64,000 nucleotides of DNA from a virus (taxonomy: Duplodnaviria > Heunggongvirae > Uroviricota > Caudoviricetes): positions 27,213 to 91,212 of IMG/VR virus record IMGVR_UViG_3300005613_000005. The stretch is one strand, 5' to 3'. The translations under genes and the position numbers were made by a program. The notes beneath the pieces are model-generated. The model saw nothing but the letters and a program-made list of their open reading frames with translations. It was not told where the DNA came from and did no database searches. Shown piece after piece: positions 26,743 to 46,326 of the stretch (the stretch's first letter is position 1; every line of letters starts with the position of its first letter).

Positions 26743-27153
26743 ATGAGAAGATTACTTGTGATACAAGAGCATAATGCGCTTAAGGCCGGAAAGCATTGGG
26801 ACATCCGTTTCGAGGCTCGCGGCGATACGTTCGCCTACGATACCAAACGACCGGAAACCAACGAACCGCGCGGCACGACAGAAAAAGTACTGCGCAGCTT
26901 TGTTATCCCTAAATGCAGATTTCCCAAAAAACGTGAGTATATCCTGGCTATCCAAACCGAAGATCATCCCTGGAAATATAAAGATTTTGAGGGAGAGATA
27001 GAGCAAGGATACGGCAAAGGACACGTTAGACTAGTGTACAACGATGACATTACGGTATACAAGTTCAAAAATGAGAAGATAACTTTTCATTATGGGGGAG
27101 TTGACTACGTTCTTTTCAAGACCAAGAAGAACTGGTTGATGACGAGGAAATAG
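26743..27153 (+). CDS. LigD-type 3'-phosphoesterase domain protein
   Basis: VIQEHNALKAGKHWDIRFE...SFVIPK...AIQTEDHPWKYKDFEGEI..GYGKG matches LigD_N signature (Q.H.A...H.D.R.E ... EDHP..Y..FEG). Confidence 0.6.
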   Translation: MRRLLVIQEHNALKAGKHWDIRFEARGDTFAYDTKRPETNEPRGTTEKVLRSFVIPKCRFPKKREYILAIQTEDHPWKYKDFEGEIEQGYGKGHVRLVYNDDITVYKFKNEKITFHYGGVDYVLFKTKKNWLMTRK

Positions 27154-27154
27154 T

Positions 27155-27304
27155 ATGAGTTACATGTCAAGGTTATATTTAGAGTTAATAGATGAGTTCT
27201 ATAACGAGCACGACCGTGAACCGACGGAAGAAGAGCTGCAGAAATTATTTGAAAATTGGTGTTCTAGACAGATAGAAAAAGCAGAACAACTGGAGGACAG
27301 ATGA
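27155..27304 (+). CDS. hypothetical small protein
   Basis: 49 aa. Confidence 0.35.
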   Translation: MSYMSRLYLELIDEFYNEHDREPTEEELQKLFENWCSRQIEKAEQLEDR

Positions 27305-27504
27305 ATATCTGGTTAGTTTTTGTAGTATTGATACTGGCGGCATCGTTCATCAACGCATACTGGGTGAGTTGCAAAGAGAAACAGTTAGGCAGAGAGTTAA
27401 CCGTCAGTGAATATTTGCTATATAACTTTATTAGTGCTTTTATCGGAGTTATAGTTATATTACTTATCATGTTTTGTCGGTATGAAGGAGGGTTATTGTG
27501 CTGA
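27301..27504 (+). CDS. small membrane protein
   Basis: two TM segments. Confidence 0.45.
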   Translation: MNIWLVFVVLILAASFINAYWVSCKEKQLGRELTVSEYLLYNFISAFIGVIVILLIMFCRYEGGLLC

Positions 27505-27806
27505 ACCATTTTAGAAAATGGAAAGAGACTGAGAACTGGTATTCGGAAGAAGGTGATTGGAGGATAGCTCTTACCAAAGGTAAGAAATGGAAATGGGGAG
27601 TTTTTTATAAAGGTAAATCTCTTAAAAAAAGCAGTGGTTTTACCCATATAATTGAAGCATCTGAAGCTGCACTTATGGCAGTCAACAAGCTTCAAGAGGA
27701 GACGAAAGATGAGAAAGGCGAAAAATCGAAAGCAAGATCGAAAACTAAAGGCAAAAGAGAACAAGAAGCAAAAAGCAGAAAAAGTTGCCAAGCGCAAAGA
27801 GCGTGA
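27498..27806 (+). CDS. hypothetical Lys-rich protein (frame A)
   Basis: GTG start; overlaps alternative frame 27709..27903. Confidence 0.3.
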   Translation: MLNHFRKWKETENWYSEEGDWRIALTKGKKWKWGVFYKGKSLKKSSGFTHIIEASEAALMAVNKLQEETKDEKGEKSKARSKTKGKREQEAKSRKSCQAQRA

Positions 27807-27903
27807 CCGCAGATACCAGGAATGGCTCGATCTTCCCGTAGAAGAGTGGACCGATGCCAGGAAACGCCGAAACGGTATTTCTGTCGATGAAGAGGTAGAA
27901 TAA
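27709..27903 (+). CDS. hypothetical Lys/Arg-rich protein (frame B)
   Basis: ATG 27709; ends 5 nt before next gene. Confidence 0.3.
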   Translation: MRKAKNRKQDRKLKAKENKKQKAEKVAKRKERDRRYQEWLDLPVEEWTDARKRRNGISVDEEVE

Positions 27904-27907
27904 TACA

Positions 27908-28540
27908 ATGAAATGTAAACAGTGTGGTATAATTTTTCGAAAAACTGGTCGCAATCATTTATATTGTTGCAGGAGCTGTCAACAAAAATTTAATCGTCAT
28001 TCTAAAATTGTTGATAAGGTGTGTGTTATATGCGGTGCGACATTTTCTACTAAAGAAGGTTACATAGATAAAAATACGTGTTCTAAAAGATGTTCAAATA
28101 AGCGATATTATATAAACAATAAACAAAGAATAAACAAAAATAGTAGGGAGTATTATCAAAAGAACAAATTAACTCAAAATAAATATAAAAAAGAAAGATA
28201 TCACAGTAATTTAACGGCAAGAGTTAGTAACGTGCTGCGACGTAGATTAGGACACGCTCTTAAAGACAATCAAAAATCAGGCTCAGCTGTTAAAAATTTA
28301 GGATGTACTGTTAAACAACTTAAAGAATACTTGGAAAGCAAATGGTTGCCAGGCATGTCTTGGGATAATTATGGACGGTATAATCCTAAAAGGAAAACAT
28401 GGCATATAGATCATATTCGTCCTTTGAGTAAATTTGATTTAACTAACGAAGAGCAGTTTAAAAAAGCTTGTCATTACACTAATTTACAGCCTATGTGGGC
28501 TGAAGACAATATAAAGAAAAGCAATATGTTGACGAATTAA
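27908..28540 (+). CDS. HNH homing endonuclease
   Basis: N-terminal CKQCG/CCRSC Zn finger; C-terminal GSAVKNLGC...SWDNYG...WHIDHIRPLS..N.QP.W..DN block shared with 40808 and 40009 copies. Confidence 0.7.
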   Translation: MKCKQCGIIFRKTGRNHLYCCRSCQQKFNRHSKIVDKVCVICGATFSTKEGYIDKNTCSKRCSNKRYYINNKQRINKNSREYYQKNKLTQNKYKKERYHSNLTARVSNVLRRRLGHALKDNQKSGSAVKNLGCTVKQLKEYLESKWLPGMSWDNYGRYNPKRKTWHIDHIRPLSKFDLTNEEQFKKACHYTNLQPMWAEDNIKKSNMLTN

Positions 28541-28586
28541 TAGTGCTTTTTATGGGAATAACATGAGAAGAGTAAGGAGAAATTTT

Positions 28587-28886
28587 ATGTTCCATTCATA
28601 TGGTCCTAATCGGTATATTTGTTCAGTTTTTGATGAGATGCGTGAATGCATAAAAACTTTAAACTTTAGCTATATGAAGAGTTTGATAGAAGAGGCTCAG
28701 GTAATGGCTAATCGAATGGAAGCAGCTTTGTCAGACCAGAGCGACGTCAGGGAGCTCAGCGAACAGCGCCGCAAGCTCAACAAAGAGCTGAAAGCCCTGT
28801 ATGAGGAGCGTACCAAGCTCAAGGAAGAGCTAGCTGATCTCAAGAAAACAGCCGGCAAGGACGTCGAGGAAGACGAAGATGAGTAG
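28587..28886 (+). CDS. hypothetical protein
   Basis: trimmed to ATG 28587 after AGGAGA. Confidence 0.45.
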   Translation: MFHSYGPNRYICSVFDEMRECIKTLNFSYMKSLIEEAQVMANRMEAALSDQSDVRELSEQRRKLNKELKALYEERTKLKEELADLKKTAGKDVEEDEDE

Positions 28887-29109
28887 GTTGTACGTGACGT
28901 ACGGCACGGACCGCACCGGCAAGAGCCAGCGCGGTAACGAGTTCGCTGTAGCCGAGGTGCGCTGGGGATCGAAAGGCGACTCCAGGTTGGCCGTGAACGT
29001 CGAGGTGTGGTGGCCGAAGGACCAACCCAAACCCAAGATCCTAGTACGCTACGGCGATGAGTGGATCGATGAGGTTATCGAGGAGACCGTGTTGAAGGAG
29101 ATTGAATGA
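28879..29109 (+). CDS. hypothetical protein
   Basis: 76 aa, GC-rich codons. Confidence 0.45.
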   Translation: MSRLYVTYGTDRTGKSQRGNEFAVAEVRWGSKGDSRLAVNVEVWWPKDQPKPKILVRYGDEWIDEVIEETVLKEIE

Positions 29110-29444
29110 AAGAATACCCGATGATCGAACGAAAACGCCGCGAGATAATAAACTTGAACGAGAACGGGAGACCGACGTCTCTCGTGCGCGAGTTCAACGA
29201 CCATAAACCTCTCAGGCAATCAAAGCGAGATCATCTCAAAGAGATGCGCCGGGGTCTAATAATATTCGCGGCGGGGATAACGATCATGACGCTGTTCGTG
29301 GTGCTCGTTCTGAGACCTTGGGAGAAGGACCTGGTCAAGCGAGCGCACGATATGGTCAAGGAACAGGTCGAGGTAAACCACGATCTGGTCGACCGCTACA
29401 ACGATCTCGCGGACCGGTACCGTGAGCTGTGGAGGTCGAGATGA
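29106..29444 (+). CDS. membrane protein
   Basis: central TM segment. Confidence 0.5.
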   Translation: MKEYPMIERKRREIINLNENGRPTSLVREFNDHKPLRQSKRDHLKEMRRGLIIFAAGITIMTLFVVLVLRPWEKDLVKRAHDMVKEQVEVNHDLVDRYNDLADRYRELWRSR

Positions 29445-29590
29445 GGTGGGCGATAGCGTTGGCCTTACTATTAAGTATAAGCTGTTCCACAACTAAGAAC
29501 TACTACGTCTGCACCGACGACCCGGAGGATCAGGGTCTGTGGGCAGTTCTGGACCAGCTCGCTGAGGAAGACGAAGATGAAGAAGACTAA
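29441..29590 (+). CDS. small lipoprotein-like protein
   Basis: ALLLSISCSTT lipobox-like. Confidence 0.4.
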   Translation: MRWAIALALLLSISCSTTKNYYVCTDDPEDQGLWAVLDQLAEEDEDEED

Positions 29591-29770
29591 GTTCGTGAAG
29601 GACGTTAAAAAAGACTGGAGAGATGGACGGGGATTCCCTCTTGGAGAAGTGGATCAACGCGTATTTAACTTACCGGTTCACGCTCTCGAAAGACATGCCC
29701 AGCGACGAGTGCTTGAGCGAGGCGAGGGCTATACTCAAGGCCATCAGGTCGGGCAAGTTCGGAGGTATAG

Positions 29771-29926
29771 ATGATTAAGAAGGTACTGATCTTGCTGGTG
29801 CTCGGTGCTGTAGGCGGATGGTATGCGGGTATAATTGGTCTGAGCAGTTCAAACGATGTTTACAGCGTTAGTCTTAACGTTGGTAAGATACTAAAATTCA
29901 TAGACGATGTTCGGGAGGACAGATGA
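29771..29926 (+). CDS. small membrane protein
   Basis: TM segment. Confidence 0.35.
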   Translation: MIKKVLILLVLGAVGGWYAGIIGLSSSNDVYSVSLNVGKILKFIDDVREDR

Positions 29927-30117
29927 AAGATAAATTTAAGATAGTAGGTGATTGTCTAGTGTTGGTAGGCAAACGCTTAGTCAAACTAAGCAAAGATCTA
30001 GTGACTCCGCTCAAGGCCATGGGGCCCTTTTTAAAAGAGATTGGGGCATTGATATACGCGGCGACAGTCGATATCATCAAATTAGAAATTCAATGTTTCA
30101 AAGACTTAATTAAATAA
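29923..30117 (+). CDS. hypothetical protein
   Basis: 64 aa. Confidence 0.4.
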   Translation: MKDKFKIVGDCLVLVGKRLVKLSKDLVTPLKAMGPFLKEIGALIYAATVDIIKLEIQCFKDLIK

Positions 30118-30159
30118 GACTTCAAAGCGGGAACATCCGCGACTCATAACCCTCACGTT

Positions 30160-30196
30160 GGTCGTGCTTATTCAAAACGTAAGCACGACCTTTTTT
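30160..30196 (+). terminator. rho-independent terminator
   Basis: GGTCGTGCTTA..TAAGCACGACC + TTTTTT. Confidence 0.6.
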
Positions 30197-30198
30197 AT

Positions 30199-30207
30199 TG
30201 GTATAAT
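30199..30207 (+). promoter_or_regulatory. extended -10 promoter TGGTATAAT
   Basis: 6 nt upstream of ATG 30214. Confidence 0.4.
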
Positions 30208-30213
30208 CTAAGT

Positions 30214-30417
30214 ATGTTTCCTTTTAACTACAACCTAGACAACGATCCTGAATGGGATTACCTCGACGATAAAGACTACGCTGACGGTTTTCGTTTCAAA
30301 AAATACTCAAACAAGAACAAGAAATGTGAATGTGGCTTAGACGCTGCTATCAAAGCTGGTGCTACCGGCGGCAGACACGCTGAGTATTGTCCGAAATACG
30401 AACGCCGCCGCGACTGA
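30214..30417 (+). CDS. hypothetical protein
   Basis: 67 aa; stop TGA lies inside motif copy 4. Confidence 0.45.
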   Translation: MFPFNYNLDNDPEWDYLDDKDYADGFRFKKYSNKNKKCECGLDAAIKAGATGGRHAEYCPKYERRRD

Positions 30418-30428
30418 CACTGCTACGC
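30414..30428 (+). repeat. 16-nt motif CTGACACTGCTACGC (copy 4)
   Basis: overlaps stop of 30214..30417; followed by AAACCGATACGAAT promoter-motif variant. Confidence 0.65.
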
Positions 30429-30495
30429 TCTCCTCTCCGGCCAAAAAGTCAAACCGATACGAATAAAACAAGGATAATTTTATACTGGAGTAATC

Positions 30496-31167
30496 ATGAG
30501 ATTATGGATCGTTGTATTCTTACTTACACTAAGTCTTGACGCCAAGACGATAAGGATAGCGGTCATCGACAGCGGCATACACCGTACAGCATGGGACAAC
30601 AAAGCTCGATATGGTCTATGCAAAAAAGGTCACAAAGACTTTACAGGCACTGGCATAATAGACGACGACGGTCATGGCACTAATGTGTCTAGCTTGATAC
30701 ATTCTAAAGCAAAGAACACGAAATACTGTCAGGTGATAATTAAATTCTATACCTCTAAAAAACCATGGAACATGGACAGATATCTGAGAGCTCTGTTACA
30801 CGCCGTAACCTCTAAGGTAAACATCATTAATATAAGTGCTGCGGGTGACGGTTACAACCCAACTGAGCGTTGGCTAATACGACTTGCGTTCAGAAAAGGT
30901 ATCAAGGTCGTAGTAGCCGCCGGCAACGATGACAAAGATATAAATCTTAATCCAACGTATCCAGCCTCGTATGACAGAAGATTGATCGTGGTTGGTAATA
31001 AAAATAAAAGAGGCGTTCAAGACCACAGCAACTGGGGAAAGATCGTCGACGTTTTTGTGTCGGCGCACGATGTATCAGGAGACTACAATTTCGCTACCCC
31101 AATGTCAGGTACGTCACAAGCTACTGCTTTGGTCAGCGGATTGTTGATCAAAAAATTAAATAAATAG
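30496..31167 (+). CDS. secreted subtilisin-like serine protease (S8), minimal
   Basis: signal peptide; IAVIDSGI (Asp), DDDGHGTNV (His), AAGNDD, GTSQATALVSG (Ser). Confidence 0.75.
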   Translation: MRLWIVVFLLTLSLDAKTIRIAVIDSGIHRTAWDNKARYGLCKKGHKDFTGTGIIDDDGHGTNVSSLIHSKAKNTKYCQVIIKFYTSKKPWNMDRYLRALLHAVTSKVNIINISAAGDGYNPTERWLIRLAFRKGIKVVVAAGNDDKDINLNPTYPASYDRRLIVVGNKNKRGVQDHSNWGKIVDVFVSAHDVSGDYNFATPMSGTSQATALVSGLLIKKLNK

Positions 31168-31175
31168 GAGGAAGT

Positions 31176-31373
31176 ATGTTGATGAGATTGTTGGTGTACG
31201 CGATCTTGTTTATCGTTCCGGCTTATTTCTTAATAAGATGGGCGATAAAGGCGTACAAAAAAGCCGTGTTAGAAGAAAAAGCAGAACAACTAGACGATGA
31301 AAAGTTGTTTGGTAGGCGAATCAACAAATATCTCAAGAACAGGCGTGATATTGAAGAGTTTAAAGAGTTATAA
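31176..31373 (+). CDS. small membrane protein
   Basis: single TM segment. Confidence 0.5.
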   Translation: MLMRLLVYAILFIVPAYFLIRWAIKAYKKAVLEEKAEQLDDEKLFGRRINKYLKNRRDIEEFKEL

Positions 31374-31391
31374 TTTTAAAGAGGAGCTAAC

Positions 31392-32624: not shown

Positions 32625-32671
32625 CAAGTAGAATAAATTACGGGGGAGCAAATTGCTCCCCCAGAGCTGTT

Positions 32672-32893
32672 ATGGAAATAAAAGATATCGCAAAAATTAA
32701 ATTAGGTATAGACGACGTCTTGGTAGTACAGTTACCAGGTGGTACTAATTGTAGTATCGTAAAGCATGTACGTAAAACTTTGAATAAAATCTTTTTCGGC
32801 AACCAAGTCATAGTGTATTCTGGAGATATCGACTGGAAAATTATTAGCAAAGAAGACATAATCGAAAAGATTATATTAAACGGTGAAGAATGA
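32672..32893 (+). CDS. hypothetical protein
   Basis: 73 aa. Confidence 0.45.
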   Translation: MEIKDIAKIKLGIDDVLVVQLPGGTNCSIVKHVRKTLNKIFFGNQVIVYSGDIDWKIISKEDIIEKIILNGEE

Positions 32894-33135
32894 TAGTTTT
32901 ATTGGTCAAAAAAGGGTTCATTCATCCCACGTACAAGTTCGAGATCAACGATCTTAAAGAACTAGACGAATTATGTCCTGAGCTCAAAAACAGAGGATAT
33001 GAGATATTCGTTGACAAATGTGGTCAGAATTCTCAGGGTGAATACGCTGACAGACAAGGTGATATTCGCTGTGGGTATTGTGGTCATATTATCATAGACG
33101 AAAAGGAATGTCCGTTTTGCAAGAAGATAGTCTAA
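32890..33135 (+). CDS. zinc-ribbon protein
   Basis: CGYCG...CPFC. Confidence 0.45.
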   Translation: MIVLLVKKGFIHPTYKFEINDLKELDELCPELKNRGYEIFVDKCGQNSQGEYADRQGDIRCGYCGHIIIDEKECPFCKKIV

Positions 33136-33368: not shown

Positions 33369-33907
33369 TGATAATAGTAGTTTTCGGAAAGATACGCAGC
33401 GGCAAGACTACGGTCACGGACCTGATTTTAAAATATGCTAAGAAACATAAGATTTCATTGCGAAACAAGCGCTTCGGCGGTCCGATATACGAGTCAGTCA
33501 AAGAGTTCTACGCCAAACATGATTTAAAGTTCAGGAAATTCAGGCCGATGTTCGATGCGATGGGACAAGCTTTGTCCGAGCATACATCGTGGGAAGAAGA
33601 TAAGTTATTGACTTATTTTAAAGAAGATTTTGACCCTGACGAACATATCATAGTCGATGACTGCAGGCGCAAGAAACAAGCTGATTTTTTACGGAAACAC
33701 GGTGCGATATTCATCCAAGTTCGATGCGACGACAACATCCGTAAAAAACGATGTAAATCTGGAGAATGGACGGAAAATCATATAAGCGATGATGACTTGA
33801 TCTTCTACCACAAAGACTACGTGATAATCAACAAACAGTCCAAACGAAAACTGAAAAAAAATGTAGATACTATATGCAAATTGATATTCGGTAAAATATA
33901 TGAGTGA
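33365..33907 (+). CDS. P-loop kinase (polynucleotide/dNMP kinase-like)
   Basis: Walker A VVFGKIRSGKTTV; DDCRRKKQ; ATGA-coupled to downstream phosphoesterase. Confidence 0.55.
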   Translation: MMIIVVFGKIRSGKTTVTDLILKYAKKHKISLRNKRFGGPIYESVKEFYAKHDLKFRKFRPMFDAMGQALSEHTSWEEDKLLTYFKEDFDPDEHIIVDDCRRKKQADFLRKHGAIFIQVRCDDNIRKKRCKSGEWTENHISDDDLIFYHKDYVIINKQSKRKLKKNVDTICKLIFGKIYE

Positions 33908-34488
33908 AATGGTTTATCGCAGACACTCATTTTTTTCATAAAGCAGCTATAAGACACAATCGACGTCCGTTCAAAACAATCGAAGAGATGAACGATCATA
34001 TCGTCAAACAGTGGAACCAGCACATAAAGAAAAAAGATACTGTTTACGTAGTGGGTGATTTTTCCTGGGGTAACCAAGCGATGATCAAAGAGATGGTACA
34101 CAAACTCCACGGCTACAAGATCCTGGTGTTAGGAAACCACGACAAACGAGCGTGGCAGATGATACGTGCCGGCTTTCAGGACGTAAGAGAAAACTTCTAT
34201 ATTGACTTAAACGGCCATCAAGTTTACCTGAGTCATTATCCTTATTATCCCAGTTGGTGGACTCGTTTTAAGTTATGGTGGAACGGATATGCTAAATGGA
34301 AACGATACGCACACAAGACGATGCGTCGCGATGGTCACTGGTTGATACACGGTCACATACACAACAACCGTCACGCGTGGAAGGTTAAAAACAAACAGAT
34401 CAATGTGGGCGTTGACCAATGGGATTTTAAACCTGTATCAGAAAAACAGATATTGGAGATCATAGATGGACGTAAAAAACACGGGTAG
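33904..34488 (+). CDS. calcineurin-like metallophosphoesterase
   Basis: ADTHF, GDF, GNHD, GHIH metal-binding motifs. Confidence 0.65.
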   Translation: MKWFIADTHFFHKAAIRHNRRPFKTIEEMNDHIVKQWNQHIKKKDTVYVVGDFSWGNQAMIKEMVHKLHGYKILVLGNHDKRAWQMIRAGFQDVRENFYIDLNGHQVYLSHYPYYPSWWTRFKLWWNGYAKWKRYAHKTMRRDGHWLIHGHIHNNRHAWKVKNKQINVGVDQWDFKPVSEKQILEIIDGRKKHG

Positions 34489-35287: not shown

Positions 35288-35289
35288 GT

Positions 35290-37193: not shown

Positions 37194-37336
37194 CAGTTAA
37201 ATTTTAACACGATTTTAGTTGTCAAAAATGTTATAATTAATGTATGAAATGCAACCCAAGTTCTACTCCTAGCACACGTTTTTTAATCAGTAAAACCTAA
37301 TAAATACATACACAATTAACGAAGGGGAAAATTCTT

Positions 37337-39976
37337 ATGTCAGATAAAATGAGTAGTTTTGCAACCAATATCATGCAGATGAAATATTCACATACGAAAG
37401 CTGATGATACTAAAGAAACATGGGAAGATATAGCACGACGAGTCACGAAAAACGTGATGGCTGAAGTGCCGATCGACAGAAAATTAAAGAAAAGGATAGA
37501 ACAGGCAATATGCGATCGAAAATTTATCCCTGCTGGACGGTATCTGTATGCTTGCGGTCGCCAATATCATCAGGTGCAAAACTGTCTGCTTCTAAGAGCA
37601 GAAGACAGTCGAGAAGGTTGGGCAGAGTTACTGCATAAAGCAGCTATGGCACTGATGACCGGTGCGGGAATAGGCATAGACTATTCTGGCATCAGAGCTG
37701 AGGGCAAAAAAGTTCGCAAGACTGGGGGTTTCGCGACGGGACCTTTGGCGTTGATGCAGATGATGAACGAGTGCGGTAGAGGGATAATGCAGGGAGGTTC
37801 ACGACGTTCTGCCATATGGGCTGGATTATCCTGGCAACATCCTGACATACACAAGTTCATAGACGCGAAAAACTGGCCGTCCGAGATACGTGAGCTGAAG
37901 AGCAAGAATTTCAATTTTCCGGCCACGTTGGACGGCACTAATATATCGGTCATACTAGACGATGAATTTTTCAAAGCGTACAACAACGATCGTCATAGTA
38001 AACATGCCCACGCGCATTCAGTGTATTGGGCTACCATCAAGCGTATGCTAAAGACCGGCGAACCTGGATTTTCAGTTAACTTAGGACAGAACTCCAAAGA
38101 AACACTTAGAAATGCTCCAATTCATAGTAATACACATGTACTTACTAAAAATGGTTATAAACAAGTGATAGATATTGTTAATAAGCCAATAACAATTTGG
38201 ACAGGTAAACAATGGGCTCGAGATGTAGTATTTCATAAAACAATTGAAAATGCAGAGTTGATAAAAGTGAAATTTAGCAATAATCGAGAGATTGTATGTG
38301 AACCTAATCATGAATTTCTAGTTGAAAAATATATTGGAAAAGGCAAAAAATATCGTAAATTAGAATCAATTGATCGAGTTCGTGCCATAGATTTACAAGC
38401 TCAAGATATATTACATGTCAGCATGCCTACATATTATGAAAGTTCATTTGATGAAAATGGATATACTTTTGGGTATATATATGGCGATGGATGTTTTCAT
38501 AAAATATTACCTAGAGCTGAAATAACATTTTGTACTACTGAGTCACAAAAATGTTCTAAATATATAAATACTAAATGGCTAACAAAATCAGACGTTTATA
38601 TGGAAAATAGAGGATATCTACAAGCAAATACAAAAAATTTAGATATACTTAAAAATAGATGTAAATCTATGTTTCCCATAGATATATATGCTAAAGACAT
38701 CAATTTTATATGTTCTTTTATAGCTGGCTTATTTGATGCAGACGGTAATTATGTTCAAAAACGACAGTTATTAAGATTAGGTAGTATACACTTTAATTTT
38801 TTAAAAGGAACTCAGCGACTTTTAGATCAAATAGGAATAAGTAGTTCTATTATTAAAGGCAGTACCGGTAATTTTAAAAATAGTTCTAGCAAATCATGGT
38901 TTTTAATTATACATAGTAACTCTATAAAACATTTTCAACAATTAATACCTACAAAAAGAATAAATGTATGTGCTGATAATTATAATCCTTACAGACAAAC
39001 ATTGATTAAAGTTAAATCGATTGGTTTATTGGACGAACACAGTGACGTATATTGCTGTGATACTAAAGTACCAGAACATAGTTTTATGGCTGAAGGAATA
39101 ATAATATCGAACTGCACTGAAGTGTGCAGCGAAGACGATTCTGATATATGCAACCTAGGTTCTATCAATATGGCAGCGATAGACACGATAGAAGAGTTCA
39201 AGAAGGTCGTAGAACTAGCCACTGCGTTCTTGTTGGCAGGTACTCTATACTCCGATGTTCCTTATCCTAAGGTAGATCAGATCCGATCTAAGAATCGTAG
39301 GTTAGGACTAGGAGTGATGGGCGTTCACGAATGGTTGTTGAAACGAGATAAACCATACGCTCCTGACGAAGAACTAGGTAAATGGTTGGAGATATACGCT
39401 ACGTCAACCGAGATAGCAGCGAGGTATGCCGAACAATGGGACATATCTAAGCCTGTTAAAACTCGAGCTATCGCACCTACAGGAACTATTGGTATACTAG
39501 CAGAAACTACTACCGGTATAGAACCAATCTTTGCTGTTGCCTATAAGCGCAGGTATCTCAAACACCATACATGGCATTACGAGTACGTCGTAGATCCATG
39601 CGCGGCTCGACTAATTGAATCAGGAATTCCAGAATATAAAATCGAGGACGCCTTTAAACTATCGGAAGACATTGAGAAACGCGTCCAGTTTCAAGCGTGG
39701 GTGCAGCAGTACGTAGACCATGGCATATCTTCTACTATAAACTTACCGGCGTGGAAATCCCAACACAATAACGATTACAAGATATTACCGTTCGGTGAGA
39801 TGTTGTTGAAATACTTGCCCAAACTACGCGGCATAACGGTTTTTCCAGACGGCAGTCGCAGCGGTCAACCGTTGACTCCTGTCAAATATAGCACAGCGGT
39901 AAAATATACTGGAGAAGTAGTACAAGAACAAGCCGATATATGCTTAATAACTAAAGGTGGATCATGTGGCGAATAG
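37337..39976 (+). CDS. nrdJ: ribonucleotide reductase, class II-like (NrdJ-type), interrupted by an intein
   Basis: N-terminus ETWEDIARRV resembles monomeric class II RNR; no ATP cone; active-site segment ..NLGQN/CTEVCSEDDSDICNLGSINM parallels SNLCLEI...VCNLASL of RNRs; ~340-aa AT-rich insert carries LAGLIDADG (FIAGLFDADGNYV). Confidence 0.7.
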   Translation: MSDKMSSFATNIMQMKYSHTKADDTKETWEDIARRVTKNVMAEVPIDRKLKKRIEQAICDRKFIPAGRYLYACGRQYHQVQNCLLLRAEDSREGWAELLHKAAMALMTGAGIGIDYSGIRAEGKKVRKTGGFATGPLALMQMMNECGRGIMQGGSRRSAIWAGLSWQHPDIHKFIDAKNWPSEIRELKSKNFNFPATLDGTNISVILDDEFFKAYNNDRHSKHAHAHSVYWATIKRMLKTGEPGFSVNLGQNSKETLRNAPIHSNTHVLTKNGYKQVIDIVNKPITIWTGKQWARDVVFHKTIENAELIKVKFSNNREIVCEPNHEFLVEKYIGKGKKYRKLESIDRVRAIDLQAQDILHVSMPTYYESSFDENGYTFGYIYGDGCFHKILPRAEITFCTTESQKCSKYINTKWLTKSDVYMENRGYLQANTKNLDILKNRCKSMFPIDIYAKDINFICSFIAGLFDADGNYVQKRQLLRLGSIHFNFLKGTQRLLDQIGISSSIIKGSTGNFKNSSSKSWFLIIHSNSIKHFQQLIPTKRINVCADNYNPYRQTLIKVKSIGLLDEHSDVYCCDTKVPEHSFMAEGIIISNCTEVCSEDDSDICNLGSINMAAIDTIEEFKKVVELATAFLLAGTLYSDVPYPKVDQIRSKNRRLGLGVMGVHEWLLKRDKPYAPDEELGKWLEIYATSTEIAARYAEQWDISKPVKTRAIAPTGTIGILAETTTGIEPIFAVAYKRRYLKHHTWHYEYVVDPCAARLIESGIPEYKIEDAFKLSEDIEKRVQFQAWVQQYVDHGISSTINLPAWKSQHNNDYKILPFGEMLLKYLPKLRGITVFPDGSRSGQPLTPVKYSTAVKYTGEVVQEQADICLITKGGSCGE
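38093..39112 (+). other. intein with LAGLIDADG homing endonuclease domain inside RNR gene (approximate boundaries)
   Basis: insert begins at Ser after ..LGQN and ends ..IISN immediately before catalytic-type Cys (CTEV); markedly lower GC than flanking extein. Confidence 0.6.
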
Positions 39977-39977
39977 A

Positions 39978-40287
39978 ATTTGCAATAAATGTAAATGTAA
40001 TATAATATATGCTAAAAATTTATGTAAACAATTATAAAACTGGATCAGCGGTTAAAGATCTAGGATGTGATATTAAAGAATTTAAAAAATATATAGAATC
40101 TAAATGGTCACAAGGAATGTCCTGGGATAATTATGGATACAATGGTTGGCATATCGACCATATTATTCCTTTAGTTAATTTTGATTTAACTGATAAAAAG
40201 CAATTAAAAGAGGCTTGTCATTATGGCAATTTACAACCTTTGTGGAAAAATGATAATTTAGAGAAAAGTGGTAATTATGAAAATTAA
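39978..40287 (+). pseudogene. decayed HNH homing endonuclease (frameshifted N-terminal Zn-finger remnant + intact C-terminal HNH block)
   Basis: 39978..40040 encodes ICNKCKCNIIYAKNLCKQL* without start codon in a different frame from 40009..40287 (GSAVKDLGC..WHIDHIIPL..NLQPLW). Confidence 0.5.
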
Positions 40288-40798
40288 AGTACATAAAGAG
40301 GCTGGCTATGAAGAGGCTTTAATGGGACTTTCTTTTAATAAGAATCAACCGTTAGAAAACATGCACGGAGTAGCTGATAAATTAGTTAATAAAGACGGCG
40401 GACATAATAAATTTCTTGAAGCCATTATTATTTGGGTAGAAGTTGAAGCGCCAAGATATATGTGGTCACAAATGGATACCTATAGACTTTCTACCAAACA
40501 AAGCCAAAGCACTATGCATACCATACTAAAACGTCCTCTCACCAAAGATGACTTTAAAGACAGACATATAAGTTGGTGGACCCTCAGACGACTCAACAAA
40601 CTGATTCGGAATCAAGATTTTCATAAATTAAAAAAAGAGCTACCTGAAGGCTTCATGCAGCGCAGGATGTGGTGTATGTCCTATAAAACACTGCGAAACA
40701 TCTACAAACAGCGTAAAAATCATAGATTAAGAGAATGGCATATGTTTTTAAACGCCGTGCTCGACCAAATTCAACATCCAGATTTTATCGTAAGGTAA
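40277..40798 (+). CDS. ThyX-fold (Thy1 family) protein with variant active-site motif
   Basis: GGHNKFLEAIIIWVEVEAPRYMWSQMDTYRLSTKQSQS aligns with ThyX SGHESVLEH..RHRx7S region but RHR replaced by TYR; start trimmed to ATG 40277. Confidence 0.5.
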   Translation: MKIKVHKEAGYEEALMGLSFNKNQPLENMHGVADKLVNKDGGHNKFLEAIIIWVEVEAPRYMWSQMDTYRLSTKQSQSTMHTILKRPLTKDDFKDRHISWWTLRRLNKLIRNQDFHKLKKELPEGFMQRRMWCMSYKTLRNIYKQRKNHRLREWHMFLNAVLDQIQHPDFIVR

Positions 40799-40807
40799 AA
40801 TAATGTA

Positions 40808-41437
40808 ATGAAATGTCAAGAATGTAGTAAAGAATTTGAGTCAAAAGCTCATAACGCGAAATTTTGTTGTAAACGCTGTAGTAATAAACATTGGAAATCC
40901 TGTAATAAAGATAAAATGCGGGAGTACAATTTGAACAGTAAAGAATATAAGAAACGATGGTATATTAAAAATAAAGAGAGAATTAAGAAAAAGAAAGAAA
41001 ATAATAAACAACATCTTAAAGTCTATAACAAACATTGGCAAGAACAAAACAAAGACAAAGTACATCAATACCGTATAAAAAATAAAGAAAAATATCGAAA
41101 AAGACGCAAAGAACGTTATCAAGATGATGTTCAATATAAAATTAAGAAAAATTTAAGAACTCGTTTAAATATAGCTTTAAAAAACAATCATAAATCAGGT
41201 TCTGCTGTTAAAGATCTAGGCTGTTCTATTGAAGATTTTAAATGTTACTTAGAATCTAAGTTTGATGCCCCAATGTCCTGGGACAACTATGGACAGTGGC
41301 ACATAGATCATGTTCAACCTTTAGCTAGTTTTGATCTAACAGACAGAGAACAACTAAAAAAAGCTTGTCATTATAGTAATTTACAACCATTATGGGCTAA
41401 GGATAATCTTCAAAAAAGTAATAAAATTACGAATTAG
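40808..41437 (+). CDS. HNH homing endonuclease
   Basis: paralog of 27908 gene (CQECS/CCKRC, GSAVKDLGC, WHIDHVQPL, NLQPLW). Confidence 0.7.
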   Translation: MKCQECSKEFESKAHNAKFCCKRCSNKHWKSCNKDKMREYNLNSKEYKKRWYIKNKERIKKKKENNKQHLKVYNKHWQEQNKDKVHQYRIKNKEKYRKRRKERYQDDVQYKIKKNLRTRLNIALKNNHKSGSAVKDLGCSIEDFKCYLESKFDAPMSWDNYGQWHIDHVQPLASFDLTDREQLKKACHYSNLQPLWAKDNLQKSNKITN

Positions 41438-41480
41438 TATAATAATAATATACGAATATACTTTAATAAGGGAGAGTTGT

Positions 41481-42182
41481 ATGGCTGAAAAGAACAATTT
41501 GAACGATAATGGAGATGAAACTTGGGTATACAAATTCGATGAAGAAGCAGCTCACAAATTCCGAGTTGACGTTAAGAACAAATCAAAGAGGGATCCCAAC
41601 GCGCCTATCATAGTCTACATCGACTCATACGGTGGAAACGTTGATGGCATGGCTAAGATGATAGATACCATGGACGAGATCCCCAATCCTATCATAACAG
41701 TATGCATGGGAAAATCTATGTCTGCTGGGGCTATCCTGTTGTCGCACGGTGACATGCGTTTCTGTTCAAAGAACAGCAGGATAATGATCCATGAGCTTTC
41801 AGCAGGGGCTTTTGGGAACGTTCGCGACATCGCCAACGATACCGATGAGTTGATGAGGATGAACAGGCATTGGATAGGTTTGCTGGCCAAGAACTGCTGC
41901 ATAAGCGGTGGTTACAACGGTATACGCAAAGTCATAAAAGACAACGACAACCAGAGCATCTATCTGGACGCTGTTATGGCAAAACAGTTCGGCATCGTCG
42001 ATTGCATCGGTGTTCCGACCACCAACGCCGCGGTCTTGTACGAGGTCCTGACGTTAAAAGAAAAAGAAAAGAAACACATGCGCATGGAAGACTTCGAGAA
42101 ACTCCAGAAGAAGATAGCAAAACAGGGTGCTAAGAAAAAAGCACGCAAGAAAAAAGCTACGAAAAAGAAAACTAAAAAATGA
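41481..42182 (+). CDS. ClpP-like serine protease (S14 family-like) with Lys-rich tail
   Basis: IVYIDSYGGNV...CMGKSMSAGAILLSHGD.RF...RIMIHEL matches ClpP core motifs. Confidence 0.6.
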   Translation: MAEKNNLNDNGDETWVYKFDEEAAHKFRVDVKNKSKRDPNAPIIVYIDSYGGNVDGMAKMIDTMDEIPNPIITVCMGKSMSAGAILLSHGDMRFCSKNSRIMIHELSAGAFGNVRDIANDTDELMRMNRHWIGLLAKNCCISGGYNGIRKVIKDNDNQSIYLDAVMAKQFGIVDCIGVPTTNAAVLYEVLTLKEKEKKHMRMEDFEKLQKKIAKQGAKKKARKKKATKKKTKK

Positions 42183-42189
42183 GGTGAGT

Positions 42190-42516
42190 ATGGCTAAATG
42201 GGATCATACGGTAATGGTTATCGAACCGCAGGACGTAGAGTGCGTCTATAAGTTCTGGGACAACTTCGGGTTCAAGATGTCTGATAGTCTCAAGGATGCA
42301 TTAGAGAATTTTAAAGCTGATCCTACTATCGTCACACAGCGTGAGTTAAGAAAACAACTTACAATAGCAACGACTGCCATCAAAGATGAGGCGTTGGCCG
42401 AACTCTTCAAACCTGTCCTAGAAGCCTGTCACGAGAAAGCCGTGGAGATGCAGTTTGAAGACGATATAGACGAGATGCTCCAAGTTGATCCAGACGAAGA
42501 AGGGTATAATAAGTAA
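42190..42516 (+). CDS. hypothetical protein
   Basis: GAGGTGAG SD; ATG 42190. Confidence 0.45.
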   Translation: MAKWDHTVMVIEPQDVECVYKFWDNFGFKMSDSLKDALENFKADPTIVTQRELRKQLTIATTAIKDEALAELFKPVLEACHEKAVEMQFEDDIDEMLQVDPDEEGYNK

Positions 42517-42672
42517 ATGAGTCTGATAATGGTTAGATTTTTAGTAATTATTGGGATGATTGTATTTTTCACTGTACTAGGAACCTCTATGGGATATGCT
42601 ATAGGGTATGAAAAAGCATATATCAAAGCTAAAACTAGTGAGCGAAGAAAAAAAGACCGTCGAAAAACCTAA
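42517..42672 (+). CDS. small membrane protein
   Basis: 51 aa with TM segment. Confidence 0.35.
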   Translation: MSLIMVRFLVIIGMIVFFTVLGTSMGYAIGYEKAYIKAKTSERRKKDRRKT

Positions 42673-42685
42673 AGAAGGAGAAAAC

Positions 42686-43540
42686 ATGAAATTATTTTTA
42701 TTATTGTGTATGCTGCTCGTGGGTACCAGCGCATTCGCCAAAAATGACAAGAAGCTCGACGTTGTTCTAAAAGATGATAACTTTTTTGCGGTTACTTCAG
42801 TCTTTACAGAACGTCTTTTAGAAGACTTCAATCGTAAAGTTATGACTTACGACGGCGATGAGCTCATCGTGTACATCGATAGCCCAGGAGGCAGCGTATT
42901 TTCTGTAGCGCGCATGGTATCTATAATGAGGTCATCTGAGGTTAAATTTACTTGCGTAGCTCGTTTCGCCGCTTCTGCCGCGTTCACGATGTTTCAAGCC
43001 TGCACCAACAGGTATATCTTGTACGATGGTATCATAATGCAGCACAATGCTTCTGGTATTTTCTGGGATGAATTTCCCAGGATCGAAACATTATATACCG
43101 CGATCAAAGATATAGTTACCGATATGGAAACACAGACAGCAAAAAGGATGAAGATGGAGTTCAAGGATTTCAAGGTGGCCATCAACAACAACCTGTGGTT
43201 GTCTAGGATCACCGCTCCAAAATACAACGCGATCGACGCCGTGATAAACACTATAAAATGCGAAGAGTCACTGATCAAGAAAACCATCACTAAAGCAGAA
43301 AGAAAATGCGGTTGGTTCAGCTGTTCGACTACCTATAAAAAATATTCAGCGTGCCCGCTGTTAACCCTTCCTCTTCCCGAACCTCCTAAAAAAGATAAAC
43401 CTGCTGATGATGGATGGTACGACGATGAATTCTACGATGGACATCCTTTATATCTTCCGTTTGATGAAAAAATCAACACGAACATCAAGAACTTCATGCA
43501 CATAGCCCCTTATACTATTAAAGATAAGATCATGAAATAA
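42686..43540 (+). CDS. secreted ClpP/S49-like serine protease paralog
   Basis: AAGGAG SD; signal peptide MKLFLLLCMLLVGTSAFA; LIVYIDSPGGSV...ARFAASAAFTMF...IIMQHN. Confidence 0.55.
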   Translation: MKLFLLLCMLLVGTSAFAKNDKKLDVVLKDDNFFAVTSVFTERLLEDFNRKVMTYDGDELIVYIDSPGGSVFSVARMVSIMRSSEVKFTCVARFAASAAFTMFQACTNRYILYDGIIMQHNASGIFWDEFPRIETLYTAIKDIVTDMETQTAKRMKMEFKDFKVAINNNLWLSRITAPKYNAIDAVINTIKCEESLIKKTITKAERKCGWFSCSTTYKKYSACPLLTLPLPEPPKKDKPADDGWYDDEFYDGHPLYLPFDEKINTNIKNFMHIAPYTIKDKIMK

Positions 43541-43571
43541 CTGATTAAAAATATCGAGCGGGTATAATAAA

Positions 43572-43600
43572 GGTACGGTTGAAAAATCGTACCTTTTTTT
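43572..43600 (+). terminator. rho-independent terminator
   Basis: GGTACGG..CGTACC + TTTTTTT. Confidence 0.5.
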
Positions 43601-43613
43601 ATATGGGGGATTT

Positions 43614-44900
43614 ATGAACGAACTCGATATCCTAGACTTGGTAGAAAACGCGATCGGCAAACAGAAAGAAGCTATCTTAAAAAAGCACAATAAGAACCAG
43701 AGGTTATTTGAGTTACTTGATGCAGCATTAAATTTCAAAAGAAAATTTTACATAAAGAAGTTTGATGACATGGTGACCGGAGTACAAAGCTATGTCCCGT
43801 CATTCCACGATCATTTCATGACATTGCTGACTGATCTAGAAACCAGGGAAATAGTCGGTAACGACGCTATTATACGAGTGACCAATCTGTTGCGAAGTGT
43901 TGGGCCGCAGCAGGCTAAATGGTACTCAAGGGTCATCCGCAAAGATCTTAAGATAGGGTGTAATTTAAGTACGGCTATCAAAGCAGGTTTCGAGATTCCA
44001 AAATTTGAGGTGCAACTCGCCAAAGACGGTAAGAAATGTAAGTGCATCGATAAAATTCTAAAGAACGGCGCGTTCTCGAGTCCCAAGTTTGATGGATACA
44101 GGTGCATCGCTATAATAGAAGATGGTGAGGCTAAATTATTATCTCGCAACGGTACCGTGTTCACCAACTTTCCATCGATAGAAAAGAGTTTAGTAGATAT
44201 GTGGTGGAGCGAAGAACACAACACCAGGTACATCTTCGATGGCGAGATAATGTCGGACGATTTCAACGCCATGCAGCAATCAGCGTTCGCTTCAAAACGC
44301 GGGACGACAGTAGGAGACGTTTCCTATTATATCTTTGACATGATCCCCATAACAGAATGGGAATCTAATGTGTTCACGACCAACGCTAAGGCTCGATATG
44401 AGCGCCTCGAACTCCTGTTTACATGGTCAGAATCAAAGATAAGAAGACTCAACATAACGAATTTAAAATTGGTTGAACACAAACCGGTTTCTACGATGGA
44501 CGAGATCCGGCAGATTGAACGAGAATACATAGAGAACGGTTTCGAGGGGGTGATGTTGAACCCAGATATCCCGTATTACAGGGGCGAAAAATCCAACAAG
44601 ATGTTGAAGTTCAAGACTATGAAATCGATGGACTGCGTAGTATTAGGAGTATATGAAGGTGAAAATGGTAAGAAATTTGAGGGAACATTGGGCGGTGTTA
44701 TAGTTCGTCAGGAAAATGGTATCGAATGTAAAGTTGGCAGTGGTTTTAACGAGATCAAAGGTTCATGGAAAGAGAGAGATGCTATATGGAGAAATCCGGA
44801 CGTGATAATCGGGAGAACGATAGAGGTAAAATATCAAGAAATAGGATCAGAAGGAAGGATGAGGTTTCCCGTGATCATGCGTTTTCGGGACGACAAGTAG
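43614..44900 (+). CDS. ATP-dependent DNA ligase
   Basis: motif I KFDGYR, III FDGEIM, IV EGVMLN, V LKFK. Confidence 0.7.
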   Translation: MNELDILDLVENAIGKQKEAILKKHNKNQRLFELLDAALNFKRKFYIKKFDDMVTGVQSYVPSFHDHFMTLLTDLETREIVGNDAIIRVTNLLRSVGPQQAKWYSRVIRKDLKIGCNLSTAIKAGFEIPKFEVQLAKDGKKCKCIDKILKNGAFSSPKFDGYRCIAIIEDGEAKLLSRNGTVFTNFPSIEKSLVDMWWSEEHNTRYIFDGEIMSDDFNAMQQSAFASKRGTTVGDVSYYIFDMIPITEWESNVFTTNAKARYERLELLFTWSESKIRRLNITNLKLVEHKPVSTMDEIRQIEREYIENGFEGVMLNPDIPYYRGEKSNKMLKFKTMKSMDCVVLGVYEGENGKKFEGTLGGVIVRQENGIECKVGSGFNEIKGSWKERDAIWRNPDVIIGRTIEVKYQEIGSEGRMRFPVIMRFRDDK

Positions 44901-45063
44901 TTACCCTGCGACGTACCCACACGCCTAATAACTGGGCCGTGTTCAGCGGTGACGTACAGATATCTCCGACTTGGTATGGGAACAAGTATCAGGTGATTGA
45001 TCAAGCCAAAGCGTGGATATCATCGTGGACTTGGGAATTGGAGATAGAAGACGAGGAGAAAGA

Positions 45064-45357
45064 ATGAGATACTTAATTTTAGTAAGTTTATTGTTGGTCA
45101 GCTGCAATGTGTCGACTTTCTTTAAAAGTGATCTGTTGTATTGTGCTGAAGAGTCCAGTATGAAAAGAACGTGCGTGAGAGTGATAGAGGGATATCGCGT
45201 CAACAGCCAAGAGATATTAAGTCTTGTCCCTTTGTTACACCAAAATACCGATAAGCAAAACGTAGAGTTCTGTCGCGCTGTGTTGAAGAACGGTAGGATA
45301 CTTGATTTTTCAGCACACTGTGATGATTTTTTTGAGTTTATACAGAAAGTGAGGTAA
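45064..45357 (+). CDS. lipoprotein-like protein
   Basis: LVSLLLVSCN lipobox; start trimmed to ATG 45064. Confidence 0.45.
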   Translation: MRYLILVSLLLVSCNVSTFFKSDLLYCAEESSMKRTCVRVIEGYRVNSQEILSLVPLLHQNTDKQNVEFCRAVLKNGRILDFSAHCDDFFEFIQKVR

Positions 45358-45359
45358 GT

Positions 45360-45575
45360 ATGTACAAATGTGAGAGTTGCGGTAAGACCACCGCGTTAAG
45401 TGAAAAAATGGAACGCGTCGTAACAGAACGTCGCGATCGAGTTTACACGGCTGTGGACAGGCGCGGTAGAGAATACGAGCAGGGTAGAGGCTGGGAGATC
45501 GTGAAAGAGATCGCCGTCTGCAAATCCTGTTTCAAAAAGTATAATAAAACTGATGAAAGTAATACTGACAACTGA
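45360..45575 (+). CDS. zinc-ribbon protein
   Basis: CESCG...CKSC. Confidence 0.45.
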   Translation: MYKCESCGKTTALSEKMERVVTERRDRVYTAVDRRGREYEQGRGWEIVKEIAVCKSCFKKYNKTDESNTDN

Positions 45576-46326
45576 TTTACACGAGGGATTTGATCATAAA
45601 ACAAACCGCATAAACGTCAAGATCATACATGAGATGGCCGAAGAGATCAAAAACGACCCTGACATCAAGGTCATGGTAATAACCGGTGATCTTGCTTCAC
45701 ACAAACAGAAACAATTTCCAAGAATATTAAAGATGCTGCGCTCCAAGATACGGATACCGATCGTGATCGTACGCGGCAATCATGACCTGTGGCAAAGGAT
45801 CAAGGGGAAGTACGATAGGAACGGTTCATGGATCAAAGCCAAACATCCTGAGATACAGACCATATACGATCAACAAAAGATATGGATGAAGGACCAGAGC
45901 GTCCATCATCTTGAAGAGAGCAACTTCGTCATCGATGATGTAGTTTTTGTAGGTTGGGATGGATGGTACCATTCTTTGTTCCCACCCACGAACGACGAGT
46001 ATCACATGATAAACTACACTGAAGGTATACGAACCACTGAATGGCTCACGAAACGAGCCGAGAAAGAGTTCGAAAGGGTCATATACGAAGATACCTACAA
46101 GTATCGCAAAGCGATAGCCGTGACACACATGTCACCGCTGCCCTCGAGTCCCGCGTACCAGGGACACGCGGCAAATCCCAAATTCCTACAGCATATTGTA
46201 AGCAAATATGATTATTTCCTGATAGGACACACGCATCAGCCCACCGATATGGTACTACAAAATTGCCGAATATTAAATGCGGGCAGCGATTATAACAAAC
46301 CACAATACATAATTTTTAAAGTATAA
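45553..46326 (+). CDS. calcineurin-like metallophosphoesterase (second copy)
   Basis: TDLHEG, GDLASH, RGNHD, GHTH motifs. Confidence 0.6.
   Translation: MKVILTTDLHEGFDHKTNRINVKIIHEMAEEIKNDPDIKVMVITGDLASHKQKQFPRILKMLRSKIRIPIVIVRGNHDLWQRIKGKYDRNGSWIKAKHPEIQTIYDQQKIWMKDQSVHHLEESNFVIDDVVFVGWDGWYHSLFPPTNDEYHMINYTEGIRTTEWLTKRAEKEFERVIYEDTYKYRKAIAVTHMSPLPSSPAYQGHAANPKFLQHIVSKYDYFLIGHTHQPTDMVLQNCRILNAGSDYNKPQYIIFKV

Follow-up and report, generated by a model that had tools for sequence, protein, structure and literature searches.

A phage-encoded LigD-type 3′-phosphoesterase among nucleotide-pool, DNA ligase and phosphatase genes of a 157-kb tailed phage

LigD-type 3′-phosphoesterases (PEs) have so far been characterized in bacterial nonhomologous end joining (NHEJ) and in archaea. 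The PEs of Candidatus Korarchaeum (CkoPE) and Methanosarcina barkeri (MbaPE) are small proteins that lack an N-peptide and carry neither ligase nor polymerase domains. In CkoPE, His9, His15 and Asp17 are the metal ligands, Arg19, His51 and Tyr55 bind the phosphate, and Gln7 and Ser28 serve as scaffold residues (PMC3082917). Here, we analyzed a stand-alone PE gene and five other genes in a stretch of 64,000 nucleotides of phage DNA (IMG/VR record IMGVR_UViG_3300005613_000005, positions 27,213 to 91,212), hereafter called the window. The PE documents the LigD-type 3′-phosphoesterase in phages.

The window is the reversed part (approximately 66,994-130,993) of the 157,173 bp metagenomic contig ena:ERZ27256772:k141_2301005. 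A sequence-only reading had proposed that six of its genes form a dispersed end-healing and sealing toolkit, which could repair 2′,3′-cyclic-phosphate/5′-OH breaks, such as those in tRNAs cut by host anticodon nucleases, in the manner of T4 Pnkp and Rnl1, or could process DNA ends. When the domain HMM comparison was run, all six open reading frames (ORFs) were present as described, and each scored above the Pfam gathering threshold:

26743-27153, + strand: stand-alone LigD-type 3′-phosphoesterase (PE), 136 aa
33365-33907, + strand: predicted T4 gp1-type deoxynucleoside monophosphate (dNMP) kinase of the DNMK family, 180 aa, assigned by Pfam, PHROGs, homologue family and fold
33904-34488, + strand: first metallophosphoesterase (MPE1), 194 aa, of the phrog_547/Aquifex aq_1665 family
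43614-44900, + strand: T4/SPO1-type ATP-dependent DNA ligase, 428 aa, with motif I KFDGYR, assigned by Pfam and phrog_114
45553-46326, + strand: second metallophosphoesterase (MPE2), 257 aa, of phrog_1649
53823-54266, + strand: stand-alone T4 Pnkp-type HAD 3′-phosphatase domain without the kinase half, 147 aa

The six genes are real and were correctly named at the superfamily level, and the toolkit reading mostly fails. Unrelated genes separate them across 27.5 kb, and the region that holds them is an extended + strand block of early and middle genes. Their co-occurrence is ordinary for a phage of this size, since homologues of the ligase, MPE1 and the HAD phosphatase (fused or stand-alone) are found in 2,129, 1,901 and 3,438, respectively, of the 50,697 GenBank phage records that formed our comparison set. 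The PE is the only unusual gene of the six. We consider it fairly probable that they do not form one system but are independent, lying in the early and middle part of the phage genome and falling into three groups.

The LigD-type phosphoesterase and its viral relatives

The motifs quoted by the sequence-only reading for the PE are present, and the protein matches Pfam LigD_N with 46.8 bits against a cut-off of 31.1. The NCBIfam model LigD_PE_dom gave 55 bits, below its cut-off of 144, as would be anticipated for a minimized and divergent member. The best PDB matches were CkoPE (3p4h, 3e-12) and MbaPE (3p43, 2e-8). Eight residues, Q8, H10, H18, D20, R22, S52, H75 and Y79, are invariant across 18 PE homologues and align to Gln7, His9, His15, Asp17, Arg19, Ser28, His51 and Tyr55 of CkoPE. 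All six residues that are essential in the characterized PEs (PMC3082917) are thus retained. The clade to which the PE belongs comprises approximately 23 metagenomic clusters at 47-60% identity and is marked by two insertions, one of 2 aa between two metal-binding histidines and another of approximately 20 aa after the first active-site strand (HWDIRFE).

We found no PE homologue among the GenBank phages by tblastn, whether the PE itself or a more typical PE (P0039) was used as the query. There is no PHROGs family for the PE, and a search of the literature brought up no description of one in phages. In a metagenome scan with the PE alignment, we obtained 80 loci, which mostly encode cellular PEs, and the more distant PEs are cellular. 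Among these 80 loci, single-sequence queries recognized an ATP DNA ligase as a neighbor in seven loci and one more SprT-like protein (L030). The informative neighborhoods were as follows:

L001, the closest IMG/VR relative: PE overlapped by an Fpg/Nei/NEIL1-type glycosylase; the region 1860-4988 holds a six-tRNA array, a GNAT acetyltransferase, the PE and the Nei-type glycosylase
L026: PE overlapped by an HhH-GPD glycosylase
L024 (IMGVR_UViG_3300031997_000001, 235 kb), 4992-6122: 376-aa fusion of a PE to Pol X (HHH_8, palm and thumb)
L002-4 and L030: PE flanked by SprT-like proteins
L005-7: PE between a TnsA-like endonuclease and an overlapping phrog_547 metallophosphoesterase, inside a PolB/NUDIX/UvsX/DnaB module
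L011 (cellular): PE beside AP_endonuc_2

In L005-L007, the phrog_547 metallophosphoesterase, a member of the same family as MPE1, is translationally coupled to the PE. Taken across several independent lineages, the viral contexts point to a putative role of the PE in DNA nick and gap repair. They argue that some large phages may carry their own 3′-end-cleaning step for DNA repair.

The kinase, the metallophosphoesterases and the DNA ligase

The sequence-only reading compared the kinase gene and the adjoining MPE1 gene with the domain pairing of bacterial Pnkp. The two genes do overlap, but through GTGA rather than the ATGA that had been reported, because MPE1 begins with a GTG at 33904 that overlaps the kinase stop codon. 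The likeness to bacterial Pnkp holds at the superfamily level and does not extend beyond it, since the kinase is of the DNMK type and MPE1 of the aq_1665 type.

For the kinase, Pfam gave 43.5 bits with DNMK (cut-off 27.1) and 38.3 bits with AAA_18 (cut-off 29.4), and the protein matched phrog_139, "deoxynucleoside monophosphate kinase", over its full length (1.5e-18). It is highly divergent: an exhaustive HMMER search of 1.84 billion representative proteins yielded 133 homologues, a word-indexed protein search returned only the kinase itself, and the IMG/VR scan gave no relatives. DNMK was matched by 61 of the 66 homologues that were aligned, and AAA_33, the family of Pnkp-like kinases, by 3 of the 66. 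The AlphaFold2 model built from that alignment (pLDDT 94.1) predicts a nucleoside monophosphate kinase fold closest to T4 gp1 (1dek), so that profile, family-wide consistency and predicted fold agree on a gp1-type dNMP kinase. Phosphomevalonate kinase from an animal and an AdkA-like protein from an archaeon score equally high against the predicted fold; therefore, dNMPs are only the probable substrates of the kinase. When a Pnkp profile was built from three genuine Pnkp proteins of phages, its match to the kinase family (hhalign) covered only 25 P-loop columns, and the kinase was not among the phmmer matches of T2 PseT, even at maximum sensitivity. All the computational tests that could be applied indicate a dNMP kinase and not a Pnkp-type polynucleotide kinase, an outcome that the sequence-only reading had itself named as contradicting its proposal and that holds here at the family level.

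The kinase gene belongs to a nucleotide-metabolism module (37337-40798, + strand) of a class II ribonucleotide reductase (RNR) with a LAGLIDADG intein, an HNH gene and a Thy1-like gene. Its closest relative (46% identity, locus L016) is found together with adenylosuccinate synthetase and Thy1, and the kinase homologues in GenBank phages adjoin DNA polymerase and RuvC. We also considered the kinase and MPE1 genes as a conserved operon. The pairing is not a conserved unit, because the two nearest kinase relatives are followed by genes that bear no relation to MPE1; the adjacency is likewise absent in the kinase homologues of GenBank phages. A kinase gene beside a metallophosphoesterase gene can therefore mimic the Pnkp architecture at the superfamily level, which calls for caution in annotation.

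MPE1 matches Metallophos_2 (37.1 bits, cut-off 27) and phrog_547 (2.3e-46), and it aligns end to end (residues 1-191, 3.7e-18) with the uncharacterized Aquifex protein aq_1665 (PDB 1xm7), on which a literature search found nothing relevant. The metal-binding motifs DTH, GD, GNHD, SH and GHIH are all present, as in a member of the phrog_547/aq_1665 family, and no Pnkp entry appeared in the PDB search at E<=1. Its homologues in GenBank phages are distributed over many host genera. Judged by these comparisons, MPE1 is not Pnkp-like and belongs to the ubiquitous phage family phrog_547.

The assignment of 45553-46326 as a second metallophosphoesterase was borne out (Metallophos, 59.9 bits), and MPE2 retains the metal-binding motifs of these enzymes. 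It is much rarer: its homologues are confined to 40 GenBank phage records, most of them from Vibrio schizo-T4 phages, with which it shares approximately 25% identity. The PDB search gave only a weak match to SbcD, and the NCBIfam matches were weak, to a cAMP phosphodiesterase and the SpdA 2′,3′-cNMP phosphodiesterase, all far below the cut-offs. MPE2 lies directly upstream of another small gene:

46376-46690, + strand: MazZ-like dATP/dGTP pyrophosphohydrolase N-domain, 104 aa (PF18909, 8e-31; phrog_801, 9.5e-36)

This MazZ-like gene marks the neighborhood of MPE2 as one of nucleotide-pool metabolism. As a separate observation, no PurZ was seen in the window; there is the MazZ-like gene here and an adenylosuccinate-synthetase-like gene together with the kinase relative in L016.

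The ligase is ATP-dependent and contains KFDGYR, as had been claimed. It matches DNA_ligase_A_M (72.8 bits) and DNA_ligase_OB_2 (46.3 bits), with a weak A_N match, so that the KxDGxR nucleotidyltransferase, the OB domain and the N-terminal DNA-binding domain of T4-type ligases are all represented. It also matches phrog_114 (4e-93), shares approximately 32% identity with SPO1-like ligases and has T4 DNA ligase as its best PDB match (6dt1, 9e-27). These similarities identify it as a predicted DNA ligase of the replicative phage type.

The HAD phosphatase, RNA-repair partners and the remaining genes of the window

The gene at 53823-54266 encodes a DxDGT HAD phosphatase, as had been read, and scores 95.2 bits with HAD_PNKP. 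It had been placed right after the tRNA array and is the last of four translationally coupled ORFs, a chain that starts 32 nt after the last tRNA:

48837-53020: 22 tRNA genes upstream of this chain, with tRNA-Glu and tRNA-Ile on the opposite strand
53052-53826, + strand: three small ORFs (123, 67 and 68 aa) with ATGA overlaps with each other and with the HAD gene

The array covers 19 amino acids and lacks tRNA-Lys, which is the target of PrrC. We found no families for the three small ORFs. The best PDB matches of the HAD protein were the T4 Pnkp phosphatase domain (5uj0 and 1ltq, at 1e-12) and Pnkp1 (4xrp). In the alignment, the DxDGT nucleophile, the Arg that follows it, Thr-Gly-Arg, Asp-x3-Lys and Asp-Asp are kept, and the phmmer match to T2 PseT is confined to its phosphatase residues 157-291. 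The only relative in IMG/VR, in L014 (IMGVR_UViG_3300030333_003949), is also stand-alone (HAD_PNKP, 152 bits) and lies directly upstream of an NAD-dependent DNA ligase gene that is split by small ORFs. In this region (L014 5789-9186), the intervening small ORF 8002-8367 carries a T5orf172 domain, and the arrangement looks T5-like.

Our searches for ligases, kinases and other partners covered 82 kb, namely the window and flanks of approximately 18 kb. There, we detected no RNA ligase (Pfam; searches with actinophage Rnl and RtcB), no Pnkp-type 5′-kinase (the kinase half of T2 PseT; Pfam), and neither RlaP nor RtcB by sequence searches. Hen1, Ku and glycosylases were absent from the Pfam scan of 101 window ORFs. 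The 82 kb thus offer neither of the two activities that the RNA-repair reading cannot do without, a 5′-kinase and an RNA ligase.

Two proteins were considered as possible substitutes. The first is encoded near the left end of the window:

1238-2386, + strand: HNH-like endonuclease (phrog_5200 HNH) with a C-terminal Walker A domain

The sequence-only reading described this HNH gene as fused to a P-loop domain. The Walker A motif (GAPASGKT) is indeed present, and the AAA_18 and AAA_22 matches are below threshold. As a candidate for the missing kinase, the domain was rejected: the Pnkp profile matches only 19 P-loop columns with a probability of 24% (hhalign), the kinase half of T2 PseT gave no match, and a PDB search with the protein gave no informative match. 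The other protein (22173-22892, + strand, 239 aa) contains the Pol-beta-type nucleotidyltransferase motif AGGSVVG...NDVDVF and modestly matches phrog_1614, "nucleotidyltransferase" (1.2e-5), with no Pfam, PDB or GenBank-phage match. It was rejected as an RlaP homologue, as its similarity to RlaP is limited to the GS...DxD motif.

The source of the window is a 157 kb myovirus-like tailed phage. The left end of the window encodes a tail sheath (phrog_279) and virion proteins, with tail-tube-like genes outside this end; by Pfam, the flanks hold structural genes on one side and ThyA with unknowns on the other. A megablast search with a 21 kb region found no nucleotide-level relatives among the GenBank phage records, and therefore the phage is novel. 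Every ORF of at least 250 aa in the window was assigned. Among the 101 ORFs not otherwise examined, the Pfam scan matched ten families: Ribonuc_red_lgC, Ribonuc_red_lgN, RNR-II_ins_dom, ClpP, LAGLIDADG, intein, radical SAM, Imm5-like, Smr and DUF6674.

Several further observations concern these surrounding genes. The class II RNR (37337-41437 region, + strand) is of the B12 type, and the intein that interrupts it carries the LAGLIDADG domain. Three paralogous HNH-like genes (27908-28540, 40009-40287 and 40808-41437, + strand) share the C-terminus ...SWDNYG...WHIDH..., and the latter two bracket the short Thy1-like gene (40268-40798). There are three ClpP-family protease genes (41481-42182 and 42608-43540, + strand; 54260-55120, - strand), of which two are adjacent and just upstream of the DNA ligase gene. 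A 518-aa NUDIX protein (6401-7957, - strand), whose NUDIX domain spans residues 93-192 and whose long C-terminal part is coiled-coil-like, is encoded among virion genes (tail sheath, 2425-4635; structural protein, 8011-8805). A radical SAM protein of 183 aa (24298-24849, + strand) has the cluster motif CNLSCSYC. Finally, the region 56355-59051 (+ strand) encodes a MoxR/AAA_5-like ATPase followed by a DUF2201 metallopeptidase/VWA-like protein, a two-gene pair that is conserved in phages.

Competing explanations and comparison with described systems

We favor an arrangement of independent genes in three groups. The first would serve the nucleotide pool and would include the dNMP kinase, the class II RNR, the Thy1-like and MazZ-like proteins, and ThyA just outside the window; MPE1 and MPE2 would sit among these nucleotide-pool genes. 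The second would be the replicative and repair T4-type ATP DNA ligase, and the third the two predicted 3′-end-cleaning enzymes, the PE and the HAD phosphatase. In the putative mechanism, the PE would bind Mn2+ through H10, H18 and D20 and use R22, H75 and Y79 to hydrolyze a 3′-phosphate or to resect a 3′-terminal ribonucleotide, and the HAD protein would remove 3′-phosphates through an Asp9 acyl-phosphate intermediate. The PE, and probably the HAD protein too, would restore 3′-OH ends at DNA nicks and gaps, after which the phage polymerase and the DNA ligase would finish the repair in a viral single-strand-break or base-excision-type pathway. We infer the substrates of these enzymes and any cooperation between them from sequence comparisons; a DNA 3′-end-cleaning reading is the best supported because of the gene contexts in relatives and the conserved catalytic residues. 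Accordingly, the second half of the earlier proposal, the processing of DNA ends, gains support for the PE, the HAD 3′-phosphatase and the DNA ligase; the kinase, MPE1 and MPE2 are not among the supported genes.

Several observations weigh against this reading of the genes. CkoPE has a preference for single-stranded substrates that end in ribonucleotides (PMC3258152). The glycosylase, Pol X, SprT-like and AP endonuclease partners of the PE were not found in the 82 kb; the possibility that the window encodes the partners seen elsewhere was rejected, as searches for Nei, HhH-GPD, Pol X, SprT-like, AP endonuclease 2, TnsA-like, RtcB and Rnl proteins detected none of them there. An RtcB RNA ligase gene (7640-8809) lies 1.5 kb downstream of the PE-Pol X fusion in L024, and the PE of L001 lies approximately 440 nt after the six-tRNA array. 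A tRNA gene precedes the HAD gene in the present phage and also in L014, where tRNA-Ala lies 137 nt ahead of it. In L016, a gene of the RlaP family, which is proposed to act in RNA repair (PMC12776372), is located immediately upstream of the kinase relative, and in the Streptomyces phage Tribute, an RNA ligase, a full-length Pnkp and tRNAs are found side by side. The HAD adjacency to tRNAs in two lineages, the RlaP gene beside the kinase relative and the approximately 75 kb of contig that lie outside the 82 kb searched leave an RNA role with a small residual probability.

In the tRNA-repair proposal, the phosphoesterases would open or remove 2′,3′-cyclic or 3′-phosphates, the P-loop kinase would phosphorylate 5′-OH ends and the ligase would reseal tRNAs cut by host anticodon nucleases, as with T4 Pnkp and Rnl1. 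We regard such a dispersed kit as very unlikely. The placement of the HAD gene after tRNAs, the homology of its product to the phosphatase domain of T4 Pnkp as well as to Pnkp1, a component of the Pnkp1-Rnl-Hen1 RNA-repair complex, the canonical RNA ligase and Pnkp adjoining tRNAs in Tribute, and the RlaP gene beside the nearest kinase relative all speak for it. Jumbo phages do carry such kits, some with stand-alone HAD or calcineurin-like phosphatases; however, polynucleotide kinase and HAD enzymes in these phages track the presence of RNA ligases (Iyer et al., PMC7824862), and none was seen here. The one ligase found in the 82 kb is a T4-type DNA ligase, the kinase belongs to DNMK and not to the Pnkp kinases, its pairing with MPE1 is not conserved, MPE1 is not Pnkp-like, and the array lacks the tRNA that PrrC cuts. 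As the reading as a tRNA-repair toolkit does not stand, the finding contributes nothing to the understanding of how phages counter anticodon nucleases.

It is also conceivable, but in our view unlikely, that polynucleotide ends are substrates of none of the phosphoesterases. In this case, mononucleotides or cyclic (oligo)nucleotide signals would be the substrates of MPE1, MPE2 and the HAD protein, as nucleotidases or phosphodiesterases that serve nucleotide salvage from degraded host nucleic acid or counter-defense, and only the ligase would touch DNA ends. The phosphatase of T4 Pnkp also hydrolyzes 3′-dNMPs. MPE1 follows the dNMP kinase gene and MPE2 precedes the MazZ-like gene, inside the RNR/Thy1 module, and the NCBIfam matches of MPE2, weak and far below cut-off as they are, are to cyclic-nucleotide phosphodiesterases. 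Against this stand the contexts of the PE in viruses, which are those of DNA-repair enzymes, the phrog_547 metallophosphoesterase coupled to the PE in the replication/recombination module of L005-7, and the HAD homologue abutting a DNA ligase gene in L014; the PE is not known to act on mononucleotides. In favor of the mononucleotide reading, calcineurin-like phosphodiesterases of jumbo phages have been predicted to be counter-nucleotide enzymes (PMC7824862).

Returning to the reading of three independent groups, we tentatively extend it to a hypothesis that we hold as possible, though rather doubtful: the minimized PE in large uncultured phages may mark an undescribed viral 3′-end-cleaning branch of single-strand-break and base-excision repair. 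Different lineages would pair the PE with Nei, HhH-GPD, a Pol X fusion, SprT-like proteases or a phrog_547 metallophosphoesterase, and in the present phage, the PE would act with the HAD 3′-phosphatase and the T4-type ligase. The damage repaired would come from oxidation or from host nucleases that leave 3′-phosphates, and the outcome would be ligatable ends on phage DNA. If true, this would provide the first functional lead for the ubiquitous, uncharacterized phrog_547 phosphoesterase.

Set against described systems, the six proteins are further members of known families, and the PE in phages is the new element. The bacterial Pnkp of the Clostridium thermocellum type resembles the kinase-MPE1 pair in its superfamilies and their order, a P-loop kinase followed by a calcineurin-like metallophosphoesterase. 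However, bacterial Pnkp unites kinase, metallophosphoesterase and adenylyltransferase in one protein, whereas the genes here are separate and encode a DNMK kinase and an aq_1665/phrog_547 metallophosphoesterase; the Pfam scan of the window found neither a ligase-like adenylyltransferase domain nor the Hen1 of Pnkp/Hen1 systems. T4 Pnkp (PseT) has an N-terminal 5′-kinase, unlike the phosphatase-only HAD protein, which lacks the kinase of a bifunctional Pnkp and has Thr-Gly-Arg in place of the Ser-Gly-Arg of T4 Pnkp. A stand-alone HAD_PNKP-type domain is already common in phages, for example in T1-like phages, and occurs in L014 as well. In comparison with the T4 gp1 dNMP kinase (241 aa), the kinase described here is much shorter and very divergent.

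The PE shares with CkoPE and MbaPE its small size and the absence of an N-peptide and of ligase and polymerase domains, but the latter enzymes are archaeal, whereas the PE is phage-encoded and bears the clade-specific 2-aa and approximately 20-aa inserts. It also differs from the LigD of bacterial NHEJ, since Pfam detected no Ku, LigD ligase domain or LigD polymerase domain in the window. A further parallel is the APE1-independent base excision repair of mammals by NEIL1/2 and PNKP, in which a beta,delta-lyase glycosylase leaves a 3′-phosphate and a 3′-phosphatase is needed before gap filling and ligation. As no glycosylase was found in the window, the analogy rests on relatives such as L001, where the PE gene is overlapped by the glycosylase gene. 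The mammalian pathway uses the HAD-type PNKP for this step, whereas its viral counterpart would be a LigD-type PE.

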